Shown: in pieces, positions 9,566 through 29,360 of the stretch
Layout: the number at the start of each line of letters is the position of its first letter
Numbering within the stretch: position 1 is the stretch's first letter
Assembly: GCA_024222295.1 (NCBI GenBank)
Contig: JAAEPF010000033.1
Span: 31,691-95,690 of the forward strand
Direction of reading: 5' to 3'
DNA: 64,000 nt
Origin: Actinomycetes bacterium
GTDB lineage: Bacteria; Actinomycetota; Acidimicrobiia; Acidimicrobiales; Microtrichaceae
Notes under the pieces: model-generated
Told to the model about the DNA's origin: nothing
The model's input: only the letters and a program-made list of their open reading frames with translations
The model's database searches: none
Position numbers and translations under genes: made by a program

Positions 9566-11062
9566 TCAGCCTAGGTAGATGAGGCCGTCTCCGACTTCGC
9601 GGCACGCGACTCCGCTCTCCGCCACCGCCTGGTCCCACCCCTCGTCCACCTCGGGATCGCACTGCTCCATGCCGTGGTCCGCGATTACCAGCACAGCGGT
9701 GTCATCGAGCGCCCCTGCGGATTCGACTGCTGCCAGTACGTCGCCGACCCTGGCATCGCTGTCACGCACAGCGGCTCTTGCCAGCTCGCCGTGGGGGCCG
9801 CTCGTGTGGCCTGCTTCATCGGTGAGCGCCAGGCTGCACCAGCTGAGTGTGGGAAGTGGGTTGCCGTGCTCGCGCCGCCAGCACTGCAGTGTGTGGGCGG
9901 TCGAGAGGTGGTCGACACGCGACATGAAGCGGTACGGCTCGTTGGCCGACGCGTCGGGGTCGAGGTGGGTGACTGTGTCGGTGGGGGGAAGCCCTGACTC
10001 GTCGCCCCTGCGTACCAGGGCGAACGTCGAGAAGTCGGCGCCCGTGTCACAGAACTCGAAGCTCGCGCTGCTGAAGGCGCTGGGTCTGCTGCGGTGGAGC
10101 GCCTGGAACAGGGTCTCGACGTCGGGTGAGAGGTGTTGCATCGCGTGGAACATGGCTGGCAGTTCCAGGAGGTCGACGGTGTCACCGTCGGCGCGGTCGA
10201 CCCACGCGTTGTGAAGGATGCCCGAGTGGCCGGGGTGGGCACCCGTGATCGATGTGGTGTGGTTGGCCAGCGTCGCAGTGGGCAGGGACGCCATCGAACC
10301 CCGGCCGAAGCTCATGCCGTCGGAGAGGACGGACCCGATGTTGGGCGCCTCGCCGTCGGCCATGGCTGCTGCGAGCAGATTGGGGTTGCACCCGTCCAGC
10401 AGGAACACCACGACGTGATCCGGCCGGGTGCCGTCCAGGACCTCGGACTCGACCGTGCCGTCCTGTCGTCGCAACAACCCGCGGTCGAGTCGCTCGCCCG
10501 TGGGGCCCACGCTGCCGACGTTGGCTTCGACACCGAGCAGCCGCGCGATGGTGGGGGCCACGTTCACGACCCTGGTGGCCTGGTCGACCACGCCCAGTTT
10601 CGCGATACCCGCGCCGCCCGCGATGAACGGCGCCCGTGCCTGCACGGTGCCGAGCGAGCCGTGCTGGCCGAGGTGGCCACCGTAGTGGTGCGACGCCGAG
10701 TGCAGCGCGACCAGATCGGGCGCCACCGGTGCATCGAAGAACTGGGCGACGGAGTCGAAGGCGAACGGGTAGGCGTTGTCATGCGCGGCGGGGAAGGAGT
10801 TGCTGCGTTCGGTGCCCAGCCCGAGGAAGCGGTCGGTGCTCTGGTCCGCGAGTGGGTCACGACCGCTCGTGGCGGTGCGGCGGTACTCGGGGTTGCCGTT
10901 GTCGGTGCTGCGTGTGAACTCCACCGCCCCGTCGTGTGCGGCGGCACGATAGGTGTCTGGCTGAGGAGAGCTGAGAACCATCTCGACGCGATCGGCGAGC
11001 GTCGGGTCGCACAGAGCCGACTCGAGCGCGGCCGACTCCGGCTCCCGGGTGGTACGGGTCAC
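9566..11062 (-). CDS. Alkaline-phosphatase-superfamily nucleotide pyrophosphatase/phosphodiesterase (NPP) family protein
   Basis: VVFLLDGCNPN, TLANHTTSITGAHPGHSGILHNAW (Thr nucleophile context), LALTDEAGHTSGPHG and VLVIADHGM. Confidence 0.8.
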   Translation of the reverse strand: MTRTTREPESAALESALCDPTLADRVEMVLSSPQPDTYRAAAHDGAVEFTRSTDNGNPEYRRTATSGRDPLADQSTDRFLGLGTERSNSFPAAHDNAYPFAFDSVAQFFDAPVAPDLVALHSASHHYGGHLGQHGSLGTVQARAPFIAGGAGIAKLGVVDQATRVVNVAPTIARLLGVEANVGSVGPTGERLDRGLLRRQDGTVESEVLDGTRPDHVVVFLLDGCNPNLLAAAMADGEAPNIGSVLSDGMSFGRGSMASLPTATLANHTTSITGAHPGHSGILHNAWVDRADGDTVDLLELPAMFHAMQHLSPDVETLFQALHRSRPSAFSSASFEFCDTGADFSTFALVRRGDESGLPPTDTVTHLDPDASANEPYRFMSRVDHLSTAHTLQCWRREHGNPLPTLSWCSLALTDEAGHTSGPHGELARAAVRDSDARVGDVLAAVESAGALDDTAVLVIADHGMEQCDPEVDEGWDQAVAESGVACREVGDGLIYLG

Positions 11063-17046: not shown

Positions 17047-17363
17047 CGGTCTTCCTCCTGTGGGCGTGGCCCAATCGTAATTCCGGGGCACCCGCGAAAG
17101 TGGAACTCGTTTCAGTTTTGCCCTTCACGGGCAACCGACAGAGGGCCGCTGCGGAGCGGGACGGGGTGCTTCCTCGTTGCCGGAGCAGCGACCCTGGCCA
17201 CGCGGGTATCAGGCGGGCGGGCTCAGACGGGCTGTTAAGGTCGAGATAACAGCGCTCCCTAGATGGGTGTTGCTCGTCGCCGGGAAATTCTCGGGGCGGT
17301 GAACACCTGCGGCCCGAGGCCGCTGACGGAGCGGCTGTACAGCACCCGATCATGGAGGTCGGT

Positions 17364-18326
17364 ATGACAAAGCCCCACTCTCGACTACTGCGCGTAGCAG
17401 CACTCATCTTCGCATCCTTGCTGATCGCCTCAGCGTGCAGCAGCGATGACGACGACAGCGGCTCCGAAGAAGGCTCCGGAGCCGGCGATGAGCTCAGCGG
17501 GGTGAGTGTCACTGTCGGTTCCAAGGACTTCACCGAGAACATCCTGCTCGGCGAGATGCTCGTCCAGGCTCTGGAGGCCCAGGGCGCAGACGTGACCAAT
17601 CAGGTCAACCTCGGCGGCACATCCGTCAACCGCGAGGCTCTGCTTGCCGGCGATATCGACGTCTATCCCGATTACAACGGCACAGGGTGGACAGTCCACC
17701 TCGGCCAGGAAGACCCGAGCTCGGATCCCCAGGAGCTCTATGACGTCACTTCAGAGAAGGACCTTGCTGACAACGGCATCCAGTGGGCGGGCCTCTCCCC
17801 GTTCAATGACACCTACGGCTTCGCTGCAAACGGAACGCTGGTCGAACAGGAAGGCAGCTTCGATCTGCAGTCGATGGCGGACTACCTGGCGGCCAACCCG
17901 GACGCCGTGCTCTGCCTCGAGACTGAGTTCCCGGACCGTCCAGATGGGCTGATCCTGTTCGAGGAAGCAACTGGCTACGAGGTGCCCCAGGAACAGATCC
18001 AGATTCTGGACACTGGTCTCATCTACACGGAGACGGAGAACGGCGCCTGTGACTTCGGTGAGATCTTCACCACGGACGGCCGAGTGACAGCGCTCGACAT
18101 CGAATTGGTCGAGGACCCCGGCGTCTTCATCCTGTACAACGTTTCGTACACTTGGAACGACGAGGCATTCCAGGCCCATGCAGAGACCTACCAGACCATC
18201 GTCGATGAGATCCTGGACCCGCTGACCGACGCAAAGATGGCGGAGTTGAACGCCGAGGTCGACGTGAACGGCGATGACCCCGCGGACGTTGCAAAGGGCT
18301 ACCTGGAGTCAATCGGGCTCGTCTAG
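17364..18326 (+). CDS. Glycine betaine/choline/carnitine-type (OpuC/OpuAC family) ABC substrate-binding lipoprotein
   Basis: Lipobox LLIASAC. FTENILLGEM and DVYPDYNGTGW aromatic-box context. GGAGG at 17354-17358 sits 5 nt before ATG 17364. Confidence 0.8.
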   Translation: MTKPHSRLLRVAALIFASLLIASACSSDDDDSGSEEGSGAGDELSGVSVTVGSKDFTENILLGEMLVQALEAQGADVTNQVNLGGTSVNREALLAGDIDVYPDYNGTGWTVHLGQEDPSSDPQELYDVTSEKDLADNGIQWAGLSPFNDTYGFAANGTLVEQEGSFDLQSMADYLAANPDAVLCLETEFPDRPDGLILFEEATGYEVPQEQIQILDTGLIYTETENGACDFGEIFTTDGRVTALDIELVEDPGVFILYNVSYTWNDEAFQAHAETYQTIVDEILDPLTDAKMAELNAEVDVNGDDPADVAKGYLESIGLV

Positions 18327-18357
18327 CCGCATGTAGCGATTGCCACCACAGTCCTGG

Positions 18358-18398
18358 AGCGCCCCCCGACCTGTTGGGTCGGGGGGCGCTCTTCGTTT
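18358..18398 (+). terminator. Intrinsic terminator downstream of the SBP gene
   Basis: Perfect 14-bp stem AGCGCCCCCCGACC / GGTCGGGGGGCGCT (18358-18371 / 18377-18390), 5-nt loop, followed by CTTCGTTT. Confidence 0.75.
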
Positions 18399-18456
18399 GG
18401 GACGTCGTGGGCGCTCTTCGTTTGGGACGTCGTGGGCGCTCTTCGTTTGGGGCGTT
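18384..18456. repeat. 25-bp direct tandem repeat, about 2.7 copies (GGGCGCTCTTCGTTTGGGACGTCGT)
   Basis: Identical copies at 18384-18408 and 18409-18433, plus a partial third copy from 18434. The first copy contains the 3' arm and T-tract of the terminator. Confidence 0.9.
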
Positions 18457-18469
18457 GCCGGCGGTCGCT

Positions 18470-19321
18470 TCAGATTCCCTTGGGCTTCAGGTATCGCTCC
18501 GCCACCGCTCCGAGCCAGTCGAAGGTGAGCGCAAGTACTGCCACCATGCCGGCACCAACGAACAGCACGGGGTTCTGCTGGAGCTTGAGCCCCGAGTTGA
18601 TCGTGATACCCAGGCCGCCACCGCCGATCAGGAAGGCGAGAGTGGCCATGCCGATGTTGATGATCATGGCTGTGCGGACCCCCGCAACGATGACGGGGAC
18701 CGCCAGCGGCACTTCGATGCGCACGAGTGCCCCGCGCTTGGTCATTCCCATTCCGCGACCGGCCTCGATGGTGGGGCGGTCGACGTTGTCGAGGCCGACC
18801 ATGGTGTTTCTGAGCACGGGCAGTGTCGCGAACAACACGAGCGCATAGATGACCGTCGAGGTGCCCTGGCCGAAGATGATGAGGAAGATCACGAGAAGGC
18901 CGTAGGCAGGCAGAGCCTGGCCGGAATTGGCAACGGTCAGCACCGCGGGCGCATACCGCCTGAACGACGGCCTGGTGAGCAGAATGCCGAGGGGCACGGC
19001 GATCAGGATCACCAGCACTGTCGACCAGAAGGCGATGAGGATGTGCTCCACCAGCTGGGGTCGGAGCTTCGTGCTCCAGTCCAACGCGCTGGAGAGCTGG
19101 ATCTTCACCTCGGGATCGTTGACGATTCCCTGTTGGTAGAGGACGAGCCCCACGCCGAGGACGGCGATGCCGATGGGGGCGATCCAGAGGCCAAGTGCGC
19201 GGGCGCGAGTGGTCGTGTACCCGGCTGCCGTTACAGCAAGGTCGGACTCGTCATCGTCGGATTCCCTCGGATGGTCGAGGCGCTCTACATGGTCGGGATC
19301 CCGGACGATTCGCTCTGTCAT
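18470..19321 (-). CDS. OpuC-type ABC transporter permease
   Basis: BPD-transporter core (ALPAYGLLVIFL..., EAGRGMGMTKRGALVRIEVPLA). ATG 19321 overlaps the ATPase stop (ATGA). Confidence 0.8.
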   Translation of the reverse strand: MTERIVRDPDHVERLDHPRESDDDESDLAVTAAGYTTTRARALGLWIAPIGIAVLGVGLVLYQQGIVNDPEVKIQLSSALDWSTKLRPQLVEHILIAFWSTVLVILIAVPLGILLTRPSFRRYAPAVLTVANSGQALPAYGLLVIFLIIFGQGTSTVIYALVLFATLPVLRNTMVGLDNVDRPTIEAGRGMGMTKRGALVRIEVPLAVPVIVAGVRTAMIINIGMATLAFLIGGGGLGITINSGLKLQQNPVLFVGAGMVAVLALTFDWLGAVAERYLKPKGI

Positions 19322-20478
19322 CGTTCGGCCCCCAGTCGCTCGTAGTGCTCTTGGGCCTCGGATCGCAGGTGCTGGATGACGTCGGTGAGCTGCTTGATCT
19401 CCACAACTCCCAGGTACCGGCGCTGCTTGTCCACCACGACGCACGTGCCGGTGGATGACTGGAGCATCTCCTCCAGCGTGTCGTGCAGCGTTGCGTTGGG
19501 CTCGACGAAGGCCCGAACAGTCTGACCCATCTCCGCAACTTTGTGGTCTGACCGGTTGAGATCGGAATCCCGAAGCCATCGGGTCGGCTCGTCCTGCTCG
19601 TTGATGAGGAGAATCCACTCCCGCCCCGACTCGGCCAGGGTTCGCTTGGCCGCGTCCAATGGATCGCCCACCTTCATCGTCGGGTAGTCAGCGAAGTCGA
19701 GATCGCTCACTCGCTCGAAGTTGAGGCCCTTCAGCGTGGAACCCGAACCGATGAAGTCGTCGACGAAGTCGTCCACCGGATATGCGAGGATTCGCTCCGG
19801 GGTATCACACTGACGGATGACGCTGCGATCACCGAGGATTGCGATCCTGTCGCCCATCTTGATTGCCTCGTCTATGTCGTGCGTCACGAACACGATCGTC
19901 TTGCGAAGTTCGCTCTGGAGGCGGAGGAACTCGTTCTGGAGACGGTCGCGTGTGATCGGGTCGATGGCCCCGAACGGCTCGTCCATCAACATCACCGCCG
20001 GGTCGGCACCGAGGGCGCGCGCCACGCCCACCCTCTGGGCCTGACCTCCCGAGAGCTCTTTGGGGTAGCGGTCGCGGAACTCTGCAGGGTCGAGTCCGAC
20101 CATATCGAGCAGAACATCGACCCGGTCGCCTATCTCCGACTTCTCCCACCCGAGCATCTTGGGCACGGTTGCCACGTTCTGGGCGATCGTCTGGTGGGGG
20201 AAGAGGCCGATCTGCTGGATGACGTAGCCGATTCGGCGCCGCAACAGGTCGGGGTTCACGTCCGTGACATCCTCGCCGTCGAAGATTATCCGGCCCCCGG
20301 TGGGTTCGATCATCCGATTGATCAGGCGCAGAGTGGTGCTCTTTCCGCAACCCGAGGGCCCGACCAACACAAGAATCTCACCTCGCTGAATGTCGAGGGA
20401 CAGCTTCTCCACGGCGGGTGTTTCCGTGCCCGCGTAGGTCTTGCTCACCTGATCGAGGTGGATCATGGATTCGGTCAT
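19318..20478 (-). CDS. Osmoprotectant-type ABC transporter ATP-binding protein with tandem CBS domains
   Basis: Walker A GPSGCGKST, signature LSGGQAQRV, Walker B VMLMDEP. The C-terminal about 120 aa is CBS-like. Confidence 0.88.
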   Translation of the reverse strand: MTESMIHLDQVSKTYAGTETPAVEKLSLDIQRGEILVLVGPSGCGKSTTLRLINRMIEPTGGRIIFDGEDVTDVNPDLLRRRIGYVIQQIGLFPHQTIAQNVATVPKMLGWEKSEIGDRVDVLLDMVGLDPAEFRDRYPKELSGGQAQRVGVARALGADPAVMLMDEPFGAIDPITRDRLQNEFLRLQSELRKTIVFVTHDIDEAIKMGDRIAILGDRSVIRQCDTPERILAYPVDDFVDDFIGSGSTLKGLNFERVSDLDFADYPTMKVGDPLDAAKRTLAESGREWILLINEQDEPTRWLRDSDLNRSDHKVAEMGQTVRAFVEPNATLHDTLEEMLQSSTGTCVVVDKQRRYLGVVEIKQLTDVIQHLRSEAQEHYERLGAER

Positions 20479-20487
20479 TTGTTGGTC

Positions 20488-21147
20488 CTACAGTCGGAGC
20501 CCGCGGCTCGTGGTCAGGCGTTGGATTGTTGAGAAGACGACGTCGAGCAACAGGCCGAGCAGCACCGTGAATACGGTTCCCACCCACACGGACTCGATGC
20601 TGTTGGGCAGGCCCAATCGGGTGAGACCCTTCTGGATGAAGGTGCCCAGTCCGTCGCCCCCCACCAGTACCGCGATCGCCGCGATTCCGACCACGAGCAG
20701 GCTCGAGACACGAATGCCGGCCATGATCACCGGCCAGGCCAGTGGCATCCGCACCCTCACCAGTTGCTGCCACGAGTTGAGCCCCATTCCCTTTGCCGAC
20801 TCGACGACGGCAGGGTTCACTTCGTCCAGCCCGGTCACGGTGTTGCGGAGAATGGGAAGCAACGCGTAGAGGAACAGGGCGATCATGGCGGGCTTGTTGC
20901 CGATGCCCACCAGCGGAATGAAGAGTGCGAACAACGCGAGGGACGGAATCGTCAGGAAGACCCCGGCGATGCTCAGCGCCGCCGCTCGGGCTGTGGGTCT
21001 CTGGTGCACGAAGATCCCGATGGCGACCGAAAAGACCGTGGCGAACGCAATGACGGTCAGCGTGATCTGGGCGTGCTGGAGCGAAGCCTCGACTATCTCG
21101 TCCCAACGATCGAACACGAACTCGAACCAGCTGCGGATTCCATCCAT
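20488..21147 (-). CDS. OpuC-type ABC transporter permease
   Basis: ESAKGMGLNSWQQLVRVRMPLAWP EAA-loop region. 219 aa, 5-6 TM. Confidence 0.8.
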   Translation of the reverse strand: MDGIRSWFEFVFDRWDEIVEASLQHAQITLTVIAFATVFSVAIGIFVHQRPTARAAALSIAGVFLTIPSLALFALFIPLVGIGNKPAMIALFLYALLPILRNTVTGLDEVNPAVVESAKGMGLNSWQQLVRVRMPLAWPVIMAGIRVSSLLVVGIAAIAVLVGGDGLGTFIQKGLTRLGLPNSIESVWVGTVFTVLLGLLLDVVFSTIQRLTTSRGLRL

Positions 21148-21354
21148 CTAAGGGGTGCCTGCCATCCATGTCTCGGGGGACCGGGCTCACCATAGTTGCA
21201 TCGGGCTCGCCGCCCGGCGTCCGGAGATTGCGCGTTCGCGCGGTGCAGTGCCTTCGCAAAGATGCTCCGAGGTCCTCATGGAGGCGCTCCAGCGGTAGCT
21301 TGGCGTCGGCCGGCCGCCAGAAGGCGGGCGGACCCAGTATCTGGGAGGTCCGGG

Positions 21355-22701
21355 GTGGCACAGACCGGGGGCAGGTGGCGAGGTGGGCCCGCAGGGTCCG
21401 CCGAGGGTTGGGCCGCACGTGGGGTGTGGGTGGGCAGTGGAGTGCTCGGCACCGAGACGGTTCGCAGGCTCTCGGCCTGGGTGCGCGAGCTGGAAGCCGA
21501 TGCTGCGAGCCCGGAGGGGCCTGCGCTTGCACTTCACCACAGGGAGCAGACCGACCATGGACCGGTACTCGCACGCAGCGAGCGGTTCGCTGACTCACAC
21601 GAAGGCCTCGGCGCGTTCGTGCGGGGCGAAGCCGCAAGGATAGTCGGGTCGGTGCTGGGCGAGCCCGTAGTGCTGTTCAAGGAGAAGGTGAACTACAAAC
21701 AGCCTGGAGGGGCGGGGTTCGCGCCACACCAGGACGCCCGTGCCTACCGGTTCGTGGATCACCACGTTTCGTTGATGGTGCCGCTCGATCCAGCGACACA
21801 GCAGGCCGGCTGCCTTTGGTTCGCCACCGATGCAGAGCGGCGGTTGCTCGATGCCGAGGAGGGTGGCCGACTCACCGCCGAGGTCGAGCGGTCGCTCGCC
21901 TGGGTGCCTGTGGAGGTCGCGCCCGGCGACGTGGTCGTGTTCGACTCACTCGCGCCGCACCGCTCCGGCACCAATGCAAGCGACCATCCCCGCCGGGCCC
22001 TGTACATCACGTATAACAGCGCCGCCGATGGTGACCACCGAGACCGCTACTACGCCGACAAGGACGCCGAGTTCGCTGTCGCTGACGGGACCTTTGGAGG
22101 CCGGCGGGTCCGCATGTCGATCAGTGACGACTACCTCGGCAGGCCCGTAGCCTTCGATTCCCTCGCGTCGCTGTACGACTCGCCACTCGCGCACGAGCTC
22201 TACGACGAGGCGGTCAGCGAACTCGAGCACGGCCTGCAGGCAGCAGCGCTGGCCGAGGCCGGTGGCGCTTCGGACGAGTTGGTGGTGGCGGCACTGCTGC
22301 ACGACGTCGGCCACCTGCTGCTCGGTGACCTCGCGCCGATCGAGGAGTCGCTGGATGCCGATCACCGACACGAAGGGGCAGGTGCACGCTACCTGCGTCA
22401 GTGGTTCGGTCCCGGTGTTGCCGAGCCTGTCGCACTACATGTGGCAGCCAAGCGATACCTCTGCTCTGTGGATCCCGACTACCCGGAGATGCTCTCCCCG
22501 TCGTCGGTTCGCAGCCTCGAGGTGCAGGGTGGGCCGATGTCGCCCGGTCAGGTCGAGGCATTCGAGGCGAGTCCCCGCCACGGCGACGCCGTGAGGCTGC
22601 GCCGCTGGGATGACGAAGCCAAGGTGTCCGGAGCGGCCACGCCGCCGTTCGCGCACTTCGAGCCGATGATCGACAGGCTCGCCGGCCGCCTGGGTCGATG
22701 A
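21355..22701 (+). CDS. Fusion protein: PhyH-type Fe(II)/2OG dioxygenase (N) + PhnZ/MIOX-type HD-domain diiron oxygenase (C)
   Basis: One uninterrupted frame. N half: FAPHQDARAY (HxD) and SLAPHRSGTN (distal His). C half: ordered ligands ELEHGLQ, LLHDVGH, DHRHEG, ALHVAAK, RRWDDEAK. GTG 21355 sits 6 nt after GGGAGG (21343-21348). Codons upstream (gta, aga, agg, tct) look non-coding. Confidence 0.75.
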   Translation: MAQTGGRWRGGPAGSAEGWAARGVWVGSGVLGTETVRRLSAWVRELEADAASPEGPALALHHREQTDHGPVLARSERFADSHEGLGAFVRGEAARIVGSVLGEPVVLFKEKVNYKQPGGAGFAPHQDARAYRFVDHHVSLMVPLDPATQQAGCLWFATDAERRLLDAEEGGRLTAEVERSLAWVPVEVAPGDVVVFDSLAPHRSGTNASDHPRRALYITYNSAADGDHRDRYYADKDAEFAVADGTFGGRRVRMSISDDYLGRPVAFDSLASLYDSPLAHELYDEAVSELEHGLQAAALAEAGGASDELVVAALLHDVGHLLLGDLAPIEESLDADHRHEGAGARYLRQWFGPGVAEPVALHVAAKRYLCSVDPDYPEMLSPSSVRSLEVQGGPMSPGQVEAFEASPRHGDAVRLRRWDDEAKVSGAATPPFAHFEPMIDRLAGRLGR

Positions 22702-23783
22702 GCCCTCGTGTGCTCTGGGTCGTCGTCGACTCGCTGGGACTGCACCACCTGACACCGGAAGTGATGCCGCGGCTGTACGCGCTCGGTGCAGAGGGCGGAC
22801 GGGCTGACAACGGGGGAATCGGGGAGCTCCCGGCGCTCACCTATCCCAACCACGCCACATTCGTCACCGGTGCATCGCCGTTGGCACACGGGGTTATGGC
22901 CAACGACGTGTTCAGAGCCGGGGCGTGGGTCGGAGCCGAAGAGGTGGGTCCGGCGGTGCCGACAGTGTTCGAGGCAGCATCTGGCGCCGGTCTTCAGAGC
23001 GTCGCCGTCTTCGGTGACCAGAACCTTGTGGGCGTGTGTGGCGCCCGGTCGGCATGGCGGCATTGGCCGCCTGACGGCGTGCACGACGCCGCCACGCCGA
23101 AAGGCGTCACCGGCTACGCGACCGATGCAGCGGTCGTGCGCGCGGTGCAGGACATCGAACCCCAGGACTCCGCGTTGACCTTCGTGCAGCTAGACGAGAT
23201 GGATGCCGACAGCCATCTGCACGGGCCGCAGAGCGAGAACGCACGGGAGCGAGCCCGCGCTGTCGACCGCTGCCTCGTCGAGATGCTGGCGTTGTACGAG
23301 CCCGTCTGGAGCGACACCCTGGTGGTGGTGCTGAGCGACCACTGCCAGGAGGAGGTCGCAGTCGGTGCAAGCGTGGCGTTCGATGTCGCGATGGCCGGCC
23401 TGCTCGGTACGGATCCGCCGCTGAATCCGCTCCAGGGCGATGCGCGCGGTCGGTGGCGCACCGACGGGACTGCGGGGTGGGTGGCGTCGGATGCAGGCCT
23501 TTCAGCGGCCGATGTCGAGGCGATCGAAGGTATCGCTCACGTCCGCGGGCTCGAGGACGGGTCCCTGGCTGCGTGGGGTGCCGAGGGGTCGCTGCTCGGG
23601 TTCGACTGGGGCCAACGCGGCGACCATGGCAGCGGTCGCACCGCTGCGCAGGTTGCTGTCGTGGGCGGCGGGCACCCACTCGCAGCAAGGCTGGGCAGGT
23701 GGATCGGGACCACGGCCCCCCGTGGTCGTGACTGGTGCGGGTGGGTTCTGGCCGCCCTCGGGTTGACTGAAGGCCATGACTGA
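22698..23783 (+). CDS. Alkaline-phosphatase-superfamily NPP/phosphodiesterase-family protein
   Basis: VVVDSLG, PALTYPNHATFVTGASPLAHGV (Thr nucleophile context), QLDEMDADSHLHGP and VVVLSDHC. ATG overlaps the upstream stop (ATGA). Confidence 0.75.
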   Translation: MSPRVLWVVVDSLGLHHLTPEVMPRLYALGAEGGRADNGGIGELPALTYPNHATFVTGASPLAHGVMANDVFRAGAWVGAEEVGPAVPTVFEAASGAGLQSVAVFGDQNLVGVCGARSAWRHWPPDGVHDAATPKGVTGYATDAAVVRAVQDIEPQDSALTFVQLDEMDADSHLHGPQSENARERARAVDRCLVEMLALYEPVWSDTLVVVLSDHCQEEVAVGASVAFDVAMAGLLGTDPPLNPLQGDARGRWRTDGTAGWVASDAGLSAADVEAIEGIAHVRGLEDGSLAAWGAEGSLLGFDWGQRGDHGSGRTAAQVAVVGGGHPLAARLGRWIGTTAPRGRDWCGWVLAALGLTEGHD

Positions 23784-24735
23784 CAACAGCGCGGACCTGC
23801 CATCACCAGCGAAACCGGCCGACATCTCCCGCTTCACCTCCAACACGCTCTTCGGCCAGCCGGGCATCTACCCGCACGGGCCCGCCATGGAGCCGGCGCA
23901 CGGCGACCCGATCGACGACAAGGAGGCCCGCCGGCTCGTGGAACAGGTCGGAGCGACTGCGGCGATCGAGGCCTATGACTCGGCGGAGCTGGGATCGGTA
24001 ACGGAGGTGCCACAACTACGCGCAGCTGCGGCGATGCTGGCCGGTGGGCCGGCCGACCCGATTCTCGCCGGCCTGCTGGAGGGTGGGTCGCACATCAGCC
24101 ACCTCGGGGTGGCGGAGTTGTCCTCTCCGGGCCGCGTGATCGGAGATGCAGCGCAGGGTCCGCGCCCGGGGTCGCGGTACCTCAACGCGCGCTACGCGGC
24201 GGAGCACCCTGCCGTGGTAGCCCCGTCGCTCGCACATGCGATCTGCCACCACGATGGCGAGGCGGCGGGGCAGAGGGCCTCGAATGCCGAGGAGGTGACC
24301 CTGCACGGGATCCTCGCGTCCGTGCATGCCTCGCTGCTTGCATCGAACCCAGCGCTGGCCGACCTGGGAACGGAGCTGTCGCGCCGCCAGGCGTCGCTGA
24401 CGATCACTCTGCTCAACGCCCGATCCCCGGGATCGGACCGGCCGAGCATCGTGTGCCCCGACGGGCCGGGCACCATTCCGGGCGGCAACCCGGACCTCCA
24501 GTGCCCGGACCTGTGGAGCATCCCGTTCACTTCGGCCGATCCAGCCGACTGTGCCACCGAGATCCCGGGTCCCGTGCGTGCAGCCCTGTCGATGCTCGCC
24601 CCGGCCGGTTGCGACGGACCTCCCGCAAGCTACGGCGAGGACCTGGGCCGGTGGCTCGAGGCAAGCGTGTGTGAAGGTCCGGGCCTCGACGCAGCCGCGG
24701 TTCGCGCATCAGGCACAGCGCTCGGCCTGTGGTAG
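23776..24735 (+). CDS. Hypothetical protein (no family recognised)
   Basis: 319-aa ORF with high-GC3 codon usage. ATG 23776 overlaps the upstream gene by 8 nt, suggesting co-translation with the NPP gene. Confidence 0.6.
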   Translation: MTDNSADLPSPAKPADISRFTSNTLFGQPGIYPHGPAMEPAHGDPIDDKEARRLVEQVGATAAIEAYDSAELGSVTEVPQLRAAAAMLAGGPADPILAGLLEGGSHISHLGVAELSSPGRVIGDAAQGPRPGSRYLNARYAAEHPAVVAPSLAHAICHHDGEAAGQRASNAEEVTLHGILASVHASLLASNPALADLGTELSRRQASLTITLLNARSPGSDRPSIVCPDGPGTIPGGNPDLQCPDLWSIPFTSADPADCATEIPGPVRAALSMLAPAGCDGPPASYGEDLGRWLEASVCEGPGLDAAAVRASGTALGLW

Positions 24736-24775: not shown

Positions 24776-26161
24776 ATGCCTGAACTCCCCGCTGAATCTC
24801 CCCTCCGCAACGACCCGCCGGCCAACCACTACTTCGCGGATGGGCTGCCGCGCGACGGATTCCCCCAGCATGGAATGCGTGCGCGCGACGCGTTCGAGTT
24901 GATCCATCTGGGCCTGCGCGTCGATGGCCAGCCGTCGATGAACCTCGCGAGCTTCGTCACCACATGGATGGAGCCGGAGGCTCGGGTGCTGATCGACGAG
25001 GCCATCAGTACCAACCACATCGACCACGAGGAGTACCCGATCGTGGAGATGGTCGAGCGTGAGTGCGTGAAGATGCTCGCGGACCTGTGGAACGCCCCTG
25101 ATGTCGACGACTCCGTGGGCGTCGCCACCATCGGCTCCTCCGAGGCGATCATGCTGGGGCTGCTCGCGCACAAGTTCTCATGGCGCAAGCGTCGAGAGGA
25201 TGCGGGCCTCCCGGCCGACAAGCCCAACGTTGTGTTCGGCGCAGAGACTCACATCGTGTGGGACAAGTTCGCCCGTTACTTCGACGTCGAGATGCGCAAG
25301 ATCCCGATGCGGCCCGACCGCTTCGTGGTGCATCCCGACGATGTCGAGGCACAGATCGACGAGAACACGATCGCGGTGGGAGCGGTCCTCGGGACCACCT
25401 TCATCGGCGAGGCCGACCCGATCGAGGAGCTGAACGATCTGCTCGTCGGCATCAAGCAGGACAAGGGGTGGGACATCCCGATACACGTCGACGGTGCCAG
25501 CGGCGGCTTCATAACCCCATTCTCGAATCCTGACGAGAAGTGGGACTTCCGCCTGGAGCAGGTGGCATCCATCAACGCCTCCGGTCACAAGTACGGGCTC
25601 GTCTACCCGGGGGTCGGCTGGCTGGTGTTCAGGGACCACAGCTACCTGCCCGATGACCTGATCTTCAGCGTCAACTACCTGGGTGGGGCACAGCCGACGT
25701 TCACCTTCAACTTCTCGCGAGGGTCGGCGATGATCCAGGCGCAGTACTACAACTTCGTGCGGCTCGGTCGCGAGGGCTACGCAGCGGTGGTCGAGAACAT
25801 GCTGGCGAATGCCAAGCGCCTCAACGAGGGCCTCGAGGCAACGGGTCGATTCGAGATCCTGAACCCGAAACTGGCCGAGCCGGTCGTGACGTTCCGGCTG
25901 AAGGGCGGCGCCGGCTTCGACGAGTTCCACGTGTCTGACCGACTTCGCATGAACGGCTGGATCGTGCCGGCCTACACGCTTCCGCCCAATGCGGAGAAGA
26001 CAACCGTGATGCGTGTCGTGGTGCGCAACGACATGAGCCGCGACAAGATCGACCTGCTCCTTCAGCACATCAACAACGCGCTGGATTACCTCGACGGCCA
26101 CGAGATGCCCGAGACCGACAACGAGCGGGCCGCCGACGACAAGACCCGGCACCACTGCTGA
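24776..26161 (+). CDS. gadB: Glutamate decarboxylase (PLP-dependent, group II)
   Basis: NLASFVTTWMEPEA and SGHKYGLVYPGVGWLVFRD (PLP-Lys context) are collinear with E. coli GadA/B by recall. ATG 24776 lies 6 nt after TACGCT. Confidence 0.85.
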   Translation: MPELPAESPLRNDPPANHYFADGLPRDGFPQHGMRARDAFELIHLGLRVDGQPSMNLASFVTTWMEPEARVLIDEAISTNHIDHEEYPIVEMVERECVKMLADLWNAPDVDDSVGVATIGSSEAIMLGLLAHKFSWRKRREDAGLPADKPNVVFGAETHIVWDKFARYFDVEMRKIPMRPDRFVVHPDDVEAQIDENTIAVGAVLGTTFIGEADPIEELNDLLVGIKQDKGWDIPIHVDGASGGFITPFSNPDEKWDFRLEQVASINASGHKYGLVYPGVGWLVFRDHSYLPDDLIFSVNYLGGAQPTFTFNFSRGSAMIQAQYYNFVRLGREGYAAVVENMLANAKRLNEGLEATGRFEILNPKLAEPVVTFRLKGGAGFDEFHVSDRLRMNGWIVPAYTLPPNAEKTTVMRVVVRNDMSRDKIDLLLQHINNALDYLDGHEMPETDNERAADDKTRHHC

Positions 26162-26482: not shown

Positions 26483-26710
26483 GACACCGAGGCTAACGGC
26501 CACCCCGTAGGGGGCACGGGATGCTCTGGGGTAGCGAAGGGCGCTGGAACAGCCCGGCTCGGCCCCCTCGAGGATCCCGGTCATGGCGGCACCGAGCAGT
26601 GCGACCGCGGCGACGATGCCTCCGACGAGTTGCTTGTGTATGCACTATCTGTCGGTATCTGCAGCGTCCATGTGAGCCTCGCGGAGCGCGCCCACCGGTA
26701 CCCTCGGGCC

Positions 26711-27124
26711 ATGCGCATCGGCGAGCTCGCGGAGCTGGCGGCCGTGCCGGCCGGCACGATCCGCTACTACGAGTCCATCGAGCTGCTCGACGAACCCGGT
26801 CGTACCGCTTCTGGCTACCGCGACTACTCCGACGCAGACCTCGAGAGGCTGCGATTCATCCGCGAAGCGAAGGCGAGCGGTCTGACGCTTGTCGAAGTCG
26901 CGTCGGTGCTCGAGCTGAAGGACTCAGGGGAGGGAAGCTGTGAGCACACCCGCGCGCTGCTCGCCCGCCACATCGACGACATCGACCAGCAGCTGGAGGC
27001 GCTGACCCGGGCCCGCGCACAGCTGGTGTCGCTGTCGCAACGGGCGGACTCGCTGGATCCCGCACTCTGCACAGACCCGCATCGATGCCAGGTGATTTCG
27101 ACCGCAGGGGATGAGATCACTTGA
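26711..27124 (+). CDS. MerR-family heavy-metal (CueR-like, Cu(I)) responsive regulator
   Basis: [29 protein letters not shown], a dimerisation helix, and C-terminal Cys residues (CEHTR..., CTDPHRC). Immediately upstream of copA. Confidence 0.8.
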
Positions 27125-27152
27125 CCTTCGAGTCGACTGGAAGGTTTACCAT
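27121..27152 (+). promoter_or_regulatory. MerR/CueR-type promoter-operator of copA
   Basis: -35 TTGACC (27121-27126), 20-bp spacer, -10 TACCAT (27147-27152). The spacer holds the dyad ACCTTCgAGTCGACTgGAAGGT (27124-27145, 20/22 palindromic), close to E. coli PcopA as I recall it. Confidence 0.65.
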
Positions 27153-27158
27153 CGAGTC

Positions 27159-29356
<2,198 letters not shown>

Positions 29357-29360
<4 letters not shown>

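Follow-up and report, generated by a model that had tools for sequence, protein, structure and literature searches.

A putative PhnY*/PhnZ-type fusion oxygenase with a conserved NPP-family phosphodiesterase partner, beside a lineage-specific OpuC-type importer in an actinobacterial genome

Most natural phosphonates are esters, found in phosphonolipids and phosphonoglycans. In a 2023 review, every catabolic pathway covered begins with a free phosphonic acid, and the phosphonate transporters described there are PhnCDE, PhnSTUV, AepXVW, AepP and a putative Na+ symporter (PMC10574752). Three oxidative pathways for cleavage of the carbon–phosphorus (C-P) bond are established: PhnY*/PhnZ, acting on 2-aminoethylphosphonate (AEP; marine metagenome clone HF130, PDB: 4MLM); PhnY*/PhnZ1 of Gimesia maris, which converts methylphosphonate to formate and phosphate; and TmpA/TmpB of Leisingera caerulea (PDB: 6NPA), which converts N-trimethyl-AEP (TMAEP) to glycine betaine and phosphate and is, in the same review, the known precedent for a quaternary-amine phosphonate (PMC10574752). 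A fused bifunctional PhnY-PhnZ is known from the fungus Fonsecaea multimorphosa as PhoF; it acts on AEP and 3-aminopropylphosphonate, and the review text consulted mentions neither an NPP partner nor an importer for it (PMC10574752). Here we analyse a 64-kb stretch of DNA (hereafter the window; contig JAAEPF010000033.1, positions 31,691 to 95,690) from an actinomycete of the family Microtrichaceae, together with loci in relatives labelled L005 to L172. In the window, a gene encoding a PhyH-HD fusion protein is followed by genes for an NPP-family phosphodiesterase and a 319-aa protein (unk319), and faces an OpuC-type ATP-binding cassette (ABC) importer across a 207-bp divergent gap (21148-21354). 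An ORF map and domain scans confirm in full this layout, which an initial annotation of the sequence had described. We lean towards reading the fusion and the NPP as a cytoplasmic esterase-hydroxylase-oxygenase module for esterified aminophosphonates, next to which the OpuC-type importer would be a lineage-specific, possibly recruited, addition.

The fusion gene (21355-22701, forward strand) most likely starts at a GTG codon 6 nt past a GGGAGG sequence; this start agrees with the public 448-aa gene call and yields the 207-bp gap. Pfam and NCBIfam matches divide the product into a PhyH-type iron- and 2-oxoglutarate-dependent hydroxylase half (approximately 21421-21999; PF05721, E 1.2e-25, 91.5 bits) and a PhnZ/TmpB-type HD diiron oxygenase half (approximately 22156-22677; PF01966), the same two enzyme classes as in the PhnY*/PhnZ pathway. 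Across 23 homologues, residues H125, D127, H202 and R213 of the PhyH half are invariant and the HxD...H triad is present; in the HD half H292, H316/D317, H339 and H362 are likewise invariant, with D419 at least 90% conserved. All six diiron ligands, which follow the H...HD...H...H...D pattern of HD oxygenases (PMC8177086), align to those of PhnZ, as do the AAKRYL and QGGPM regions, and conservation extends to the parts of the fusion matching the segments by which PhnZ and TmpB bind substrate. Among solved structures, the HD half matches TmpB best (121 bits, against 99 bits for PhnZ). None of the equivalog models compared is passed by the fusion: the Phn-HD model TIGR03276 falls just under its curated cut-off (209.0 against 214.6 bits), the G. 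maris methylphosphonate hydroxylase model NF052437, the highest-scoring NCBIfam model for the PhyH half, and the PhnZ1 model lie far under theirs (202 against 500 and 166 against 300 bits, respectively), and the TmpB model NF049941 reaches 162 bits against a cut-off of 300. The domain matches, the conserved ligands and the alignment to PhnZ and TmpB support the view that the fusion is a PhnY*/PhnZ-type C-P oxygenase pair, as initially annotated, with hydroxylation and oxidative C-P cleavage predicted to reside in one protein. Unlike PhnY*/PhnZ, the pair here is a single 448-aa polypeptide with an NPP partner, and no PhnCDE, PhnSTUV or AepXVW genes were found near the window module. PhoF is likewise a single hydroxylase-oxygenase polypeptide, a likeness drawn from its description and not from its sequence, but is eukaryotic.

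The substrate-gating loop, at fusion residues 282-285 (22198-22209), reads L-Y-D-E and not the YxxE of PhnZ and TmpB; its Glu aligns with PhnZ E27 and TmpB E33, and the Tyr is displaced by one residue. The same Y-D-E loop, a shortening by one residue relative to YxxE that tracks the fusion, is present in nearly all bacterial fused proteins examined, those in AEP contexts included, the others having a close variant of it. Retention of the amine-loop Glu would suit an aminophosphonate better than methylphosphonate. The EYLGE...EHMLQ...GHF signature of standalone TmpB-like sequences was not found in the HD half; in L055 and L072, two examined loci where the HD gene bears a signature of this type, a TauD-family gene lies upstream, with a GBBH-like_N domain in L055, and no betaine-type importer was found near either. 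Three of the more distant fused homologues (<52% identity) were viewed in detail, and all three lie in classical AEP contexts and have no NPP: L006 is beside an SBP_bac_6 ABC importer, a type that serves in AEP uptake, L015 (Nocardia higoensis) is beside a PhnD-type substrate-binding protein (SBP), and L012 is beside members of the PhnW and PhnX families, respectively a class-V aminotransferase and a HAD hydrolase. Fusions linked to NPP and those in AEP contexts differ at 25 positions. Because the loop Glu is kept, the TmpB signature is missing and the signature-bearing loci use a TauD-family hydroxylase, an AEP-like aminophosphonate is the most economical guess at the substrate, a quaternary amine being possible but not indicated. 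No evidence singles out the quaternary-amine phosphonate put forward in the initial annotation: the hydroxylase is of the PhyH type and not the TmpA type (TmpA being TauD/GBBH-like), and the closest fused relatives with an interpretable context lie beside AEP-type genes.

Translational coupling of the NPP gene (22698-23783, forward strand) to the fusion, noted at the outset, is borne out by an ATGA junction. The product belongs to the alkaline-phosphatase superfamily and matches PF01663 with 84.6 bits against a cut-off of 23 (E 1.3e-23). Members of this superfamily are documented to hydrolyse phosphonate monoesters promiscuously. Among 73 relatives, the nucleophile T48 and the metal ligands D11, D169, H173, D214, H215 and H310 are at least 95% conserved. 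Alignment to the NPP of Xanthomonas axonopodis (PDB: 2GSN), which has the same Thr nucleophile and two-metal site, matches all catalytic residues save H310, which was assigned by motif. No signal peptide was found in the window NPP nor in any of the 73 aligned family members, and the enzyme is therefore predicted to work in the cytoplasm. It also differs from the Xanthomonas enzyme in being shorter (approximately 345-375 aa), in its genomic tie to a C-P oxygenase, and in belonging to a small subfamily of its own that conserves additional Trp, His and Arg residues. This subfamily comprises 74 clusters, with named members in Microthrixaceae, Actinomycetota, Myxococcota and Deltaproteobacteria; Microthrixaceae and Myxococcota also occur among the fusion matches. 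A PhnA-like C-P hydrolase identity for the NPP was considered and rejected, with no NCBIfam match at E <=0.01 and no PhnA chain among the PDB matches at E <=0.01. The window encodes a second PF01663 protein of 498 aa (9566-11062, reverse strand) with an N-terminal extension of approximately 216 residues, and a PF01663 gene is found in the corresponding flank of L082, L083 and L084, approximately 10 kb from the fusion.

At least 172 related loci were gathered from genomes and metagenomes, public data that are unevenly sampled. When the fusion subfamily is delimited as full-length fused homologues of at least 53% identity to the window fusion, the NPP is the immediate neighbour of the fusion at 18 of the 24 listed loci with assessable flanks; among the 22 more distant fused homologues listed (<53%) it is adjacent in none. 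In an actinobacterial clade the NPP lies downstream of the fusion with a gap of 3-34 nt, and in a second clade, probably Myxococcota-like, it lies upstream with a gap of 42-156 nt, an arrangement that recurs in seven further partial loci. The occurrence of three gene orders across phyla is a strong argument that NPP, PhyH and HD work together as a single module, and the neighbourhood survey thus establishes the NPP as a genuine conserved partner of the fusion in many lineages. The module also occurs unfused, as PhyH, NPP and a convergent HD gene, in L013 (10001-13682) and L023 (9974-12147); in L005 (10127-11259) an unfused HD gene precedes PhyH, which is the reverse of the order in the fusion.

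Gene identities, catalytic residues and patterns of conservation are observed directly, whereas the substrate, the sequence of reactions and any part played by the transporter are inferred. In the scheme that we favour, the NPP would hydrolyse an imported phosphonate ester, e.g. a phosphonate monoester or a phosphonolipid head group after deacylation, to a free aminoalkylphosphonate. The PhyH half would then hydroxylate C1 of the phosphonate, and the HD half would oxidatively cleave the C-P bond to give phosphate and glycine or an N-methylated glycine. The NPP step is placed before oxidation because the conserved PhnZ/TmpB-like substrate segments fit a free phosphonate at the HD site. If the importer does deliver the substrate, the latter would be zwitterionic, with a head group resembling quaternary ammonium. 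As regards the ester cleavage initially ascribed to the NPP, what stands is that the enzyme is a conserved partner with an intact active site and is predicted to be cytoplasmic, which makes an ester-cleavage step tied to C-P oxidation a reasonable suggestion.

The importer is encoded mainly on the reverse strand, upstream of the fusion. Permease 1 (20488-21147, 219 aa; PF00528, BPD_transp_1) is followed by an ATPase with a C-terminal CBS domain (19318-20478; PF00005 and PF00571) and by permease 2 (18470-19321, 283 aa in the public gene call; PF00528), whose start overlaps the ATPase stop as ATGA. The SBP gene (17364-18326, alternative start 17352; forward strand) converges on permease 2 and encodes an OpuAC-family protein (PF04069, E 1.5e-43) with a lipoprotein-type N-terminus. 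Every component named in the initial annotation, namely the two permeases, the CBS-ATPase and the convergent OpuAC-family SBP, is present by domain scan. The ATPase scores 337.9 bits with the betaine/proline/choline family model TIGR01186 (curated cut-off 326.6) and its CBS domain 25.6 bits with PF00571 (cut-off 24). A separate SBP of the OpuAC fold, two separate permeases and one ATPase make up an OpuC/OpuB/YehZYXW-type layout, and the four components, the CBS-ATPase and the SBP fold are shared with OpuC/OpuB of Bacillus subtilis, YehZYXW/OsmF of E. coli and ProX of Archaeoglobus fulgidus (AfProX). Unlike these, the window importer adjoins a phosphonate module, and its best equivalog model, OsmF, gives 134 bits against a cut-off of 400. 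The OpuAC protein was the sole SBP found, no PhnD-type (PF12974) or SBP_bac_6-type SBP being present among the window genes checked.

The best solved relatives of the SBP are sensors derived from Thermoanaerobacter OpuBC, E. coli OsmF and AfProX. The SBP matches every AfProX ligand residue, which we take from the 1SW1/1SW2 work to be K13, Y63, T66, D109, Y111, R149, Y190 (Phe here) and Y214. The resulting pocket comprises an aromatic cage of four residues, in which Phe takes the place of one Tyr, and an anion-holding Lys/Thr/Arg site. With the cage and the anion-binding residues intact, the importer is predicted to be of a type that binds quaternary ammonium head groups, in agreement with the initial annotation. 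More than 100 SBP clusters lie at 66-81% identity to the window SBP, from Phycicoccus, Nocardioides, Ornithinibacter, Nanopelagicales and Microthrixaceae. The importer thus appears to be an unspecialised member of a very common actinobacterial family of betaine/choline importers, with no sign of specialisation in its sequence.

The genomic position of the importer is far less constant than that of the NPP. The window, L082, L083 and L084 share long syntenic flanks around fusion-NPP, as judged by tblastx, and the slot beside the module is filled differently in each of the four. In the window the cassette is upstream and divergent; in L084 (of which L085 and L088 are 99%-identical copies) a co-directional permease-ATPase-permease-SBP cassette lies downstream of the NPP past a 187-bp gap; in L082 a major facilitator superfamily (MFS) gene lies upstream; and in L083 there is no transporter and the slot holds a 663-aa unknown gene. 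An OpuC-type importer beside fusion-NPP is therefore missing in two of the three syntenic sister species (L082 and L083), and also in L170, and among the other related loci listed OpuC-type genes adjoin the module in L084 and its near-identical copies alone. Elsewhere the slot holds an Opp-type ABC transporter (L106) or an MFS-ABC protein (L013). The window transporter proteins are 57-70% identical to those of the L084 cassette, and in a tree of 120 SBPs, which includes the 118 closest relatives of the window SBP, the L084 SBP is the outgroup to all others, so that the two juxtapositions of importer and module look independent. The tree places the SBP of L172, a locus from the same sample as L082 with an unrelated gene context, within a 12-tip clade that holds the window SBP. 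The non-coding cassette flanks of the window and L172 could not be aligned, and the boundaries of an insertion are consequently not mappable. The importer is thus not a conserved partner of fusion-NPP, its orthologues normally being located elsewhere.

The initial annotation had cautioned that the transporter genes are lower in G+C, citing 36 and 34 of 60 in the lines starting at 17701 and 18001. These counts are right, but foreign origin is not indicated by them: G+C at third codon positions (GC3) is 0.78-0.84 in the transporter genes and 0.78 in the fusion and NPP genes. The lower transporter G+C resides in codon positions 1 and 2 and reflects amino-acid composition, and a foreign origin of the transporter on these grounds was rejected. 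From the SBP gene through unk319 (17352-24735) GC3 is 0.78-0.84, against 0.85-0.92 in most flanking genes; a mild shift in codon usage is therefore common to importer and module.

Several readings of the locus were weighed; they overlap, and the probabilities that we attach to them are not intended to add up to one. We put the chance that OpuC-type importers deliver the module's substrate just short of even, a functional link that is plausible because two phylogenetically distinct OpuC-type cassettes flank the module on opposite sides in two of the four syntenic species, an outcome that, by rough reckoning, chance would be unlikely to produce outside a hot spot of rearrangement. There is also no canonical phosphonate transporter near the module. 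Set against such a link is the serious though somewhat less than even possibility of coincidence, in which the cassette is an ordinary osmoprotectant importer (for glycine betaine, proline betaine or choline) that happens to sit in a rearrangement-prone slot, and fusion-NPP is fed by a transporter encoded elsewhere. The absence of the cassette from L082, L083 and L170 is as coincidence would have it, and several further observations weigh on the same side. The L172 cassette, whose internal layout matches that of the window cassette but whose context is unrelated, encodes transporter proteins 71-79% identical to the four of the window; fusion-NPP occurs without an adjacent transporter in L083, L170, L120/L109 and L105/L108; and the slot is plastic, having gained unk319 and a glutamate decarboxylase in the window and the 663-aa gene in L083, so that the importer may have been inserted by chance. 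The SBP family is ubiquitous in Actinomycetota with an essentially invariant AfProX-like pocket in the aligned members: in an alignment of eleven SBPs the pocket is the same in module-linked and unlinked proteins, save an Asp-to-Asn change in L084 and a Phe-to-Tyr change in P0176. No operator or Pho-box-like motif shared by the 207-bp region and its equivalents in L082, L083, L084 and L172 rose above shuffled controls. It also counts against our main reading that the NPP might follow the oxygenases in the pathway, or might hydrolyse diesters unrelated to it.

The scheme of the initial annotation, in which a quaternary-amine phosphonate (e.g. TMAEP) or an ester of it enters through the importer, the NPP removes the ester and the fusion yields phosphate and glycine betaine, now appears unlikely as a whole: the C-P oxygenase pair, the NPP partner and the type of importer stand, whereas conservation of the importer and specificity for a quaternary amine find no support. 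The aromatic cage and Lys/Thr/Arg site of the SBP would suit a trimethylammonium group with an anionic tail, the HD half scores higher with TmpB than with PhnZ, OpuC-type juxtapositions exist in both the window and L084, and TmpA/TmpB sets a precedent for TMAEP in the review (PMC10574752). Against this, the hydroxylase is not of the TauD/GBBH type, the TmpB model stays well below its cut-off, the TmpB-type signature is missing, the sister fused subfamily is located with AEP-type genes, neither of the two TmpAB loci examined has a betaine-type importer nearby, and the SBP is not specialised. Similarly improbable is a variant in which OpuC-type importers were recruited at least twice to feed an as yet undescribed cytoplasmic pathway, a dedicated NPP-type esterase acting on a small phosphonoester (e.g. 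a deacylated phosphonolipid head group) to free an aminoethylphosphonate in quaternary-ammonium or N-methylated form, and the fused PhnY*/PhnZ-type oxygenase giving phosphate and glycine betaine or glycine. Two parallel branches of phosphorus scavenging, with the importer bringing glycerophosphocholine, phosphocholine or another choline phosphodiester or phosphomonoester to the NPP while the fusion separately mineralises free phosphonates, seem more doubtful still. The diesterase active site of the NPP is complete, the importer family binds choline-type head groups, and a weak PDB match of the NPP is eukaryotic NPP6, a choline-specific glycerophosphodiesterase; but the NPP tracks the fusion and not the importer, and in most loci the two occur without OpuC-type genes, which argues for a substrate stream common to NPP and fusion. 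Recycling of the cell's own phosphonate conjugates (phosphonolipid head groups, CMP-AEP) under phosphate stress, for which no importer would be needed, is the least probable reading that we consider. All three activities are predicted to be cytoplasmic, many loci have no adjacent transporter and in L169 a patatin-like lipase adjoins the fusion, but no phosphonate-biosynthesis gene was seen in the annotated parts of the window and loci, and several loci do have adjacent transporters.

The remaining features of the locus bear less directly on the module. The convergent spacer between the SBP gene and permease 2 contains a GC-rich hairpin and, after it, 2.9 copies of a 25-nt tandem repeat, GGGCGCTCTTCGTTTGGGACGTCGT, with 97% matches by TRF; together they span 18363-18455, and the repeat unit is found there alone within the window. 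The presence of a hairpin at the equivalent spacer position in L172 suggests that it acts as a bidirectional terminator. No sigma-70-like site was found in the 207-bp divergent region, and Rfam gave no match anywhere in the window. Downstream, unk319 (23776-24735, forward strand) overlaps the NPP gene by 8 nt, as initially noted. It belongs to a conserved, uncharacterised family of 169 representative clusters and matches no Pfam or NCBIfam model; a Pfam search of 36 family members likewise found nothing shared. Its AlphaFold model is of high confidence (predicted local distance difference test score 94.9, predicted template modelling score 0.93), and Foldseek found no fold match in the PDB (best E 1.4). 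Within the family H154, T199 and L201 do not vary, and near-invariance is seen at several Arg, Glu and Asp positions. Because unk319 lies beside the NPP in the window genome only, being missing from all the related loci listed, no pathway role can be claimed for it. A glutamate decarboxylase gene (24776-26161, forward strand; TIGR01788, 589 bits) starts 40 nt past unk319 on the same strand and is found here in the window lineage only; it may therefore be co-transcribed with the module, to which it is probably unrelated. Both genes are lineage-specific additions. Further downstream, at 26630-29360, lie a MerR regulator, an HMA-domain P-type ATPase, a small HMA protein and an RCC_reductase-family gene, named after Pfam matches in the public gene calls of L081, in what looks like a heavy-metal efflux unit; the ATPase and the reductase are found in the downstream region of L083 as well.

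If the importer is not linked to the module, the locus shows for genome interpretation that adjacency seen in one genome can be misleading, and that a difference in G+C tests foreign origin poorly where amino-acid composition differs. The phosphonate literature that we searched describes neither an NPP partner nor a betaine-family importer. Should a betaine-type importer truly be linked, a new family would join the phosphonate transporters described in the 2023 review, and were repeated recruitment of OpuC-type importers the true reading, no earlier route dedicated to esterified phosphonates, and no earlier phosphonate importer of the betaine family, would be known. An NPP locked genomically to a putative C-P-cleaving oxygenase offers a concrete candidate for the missing step that liberates phosphonates from their esters.

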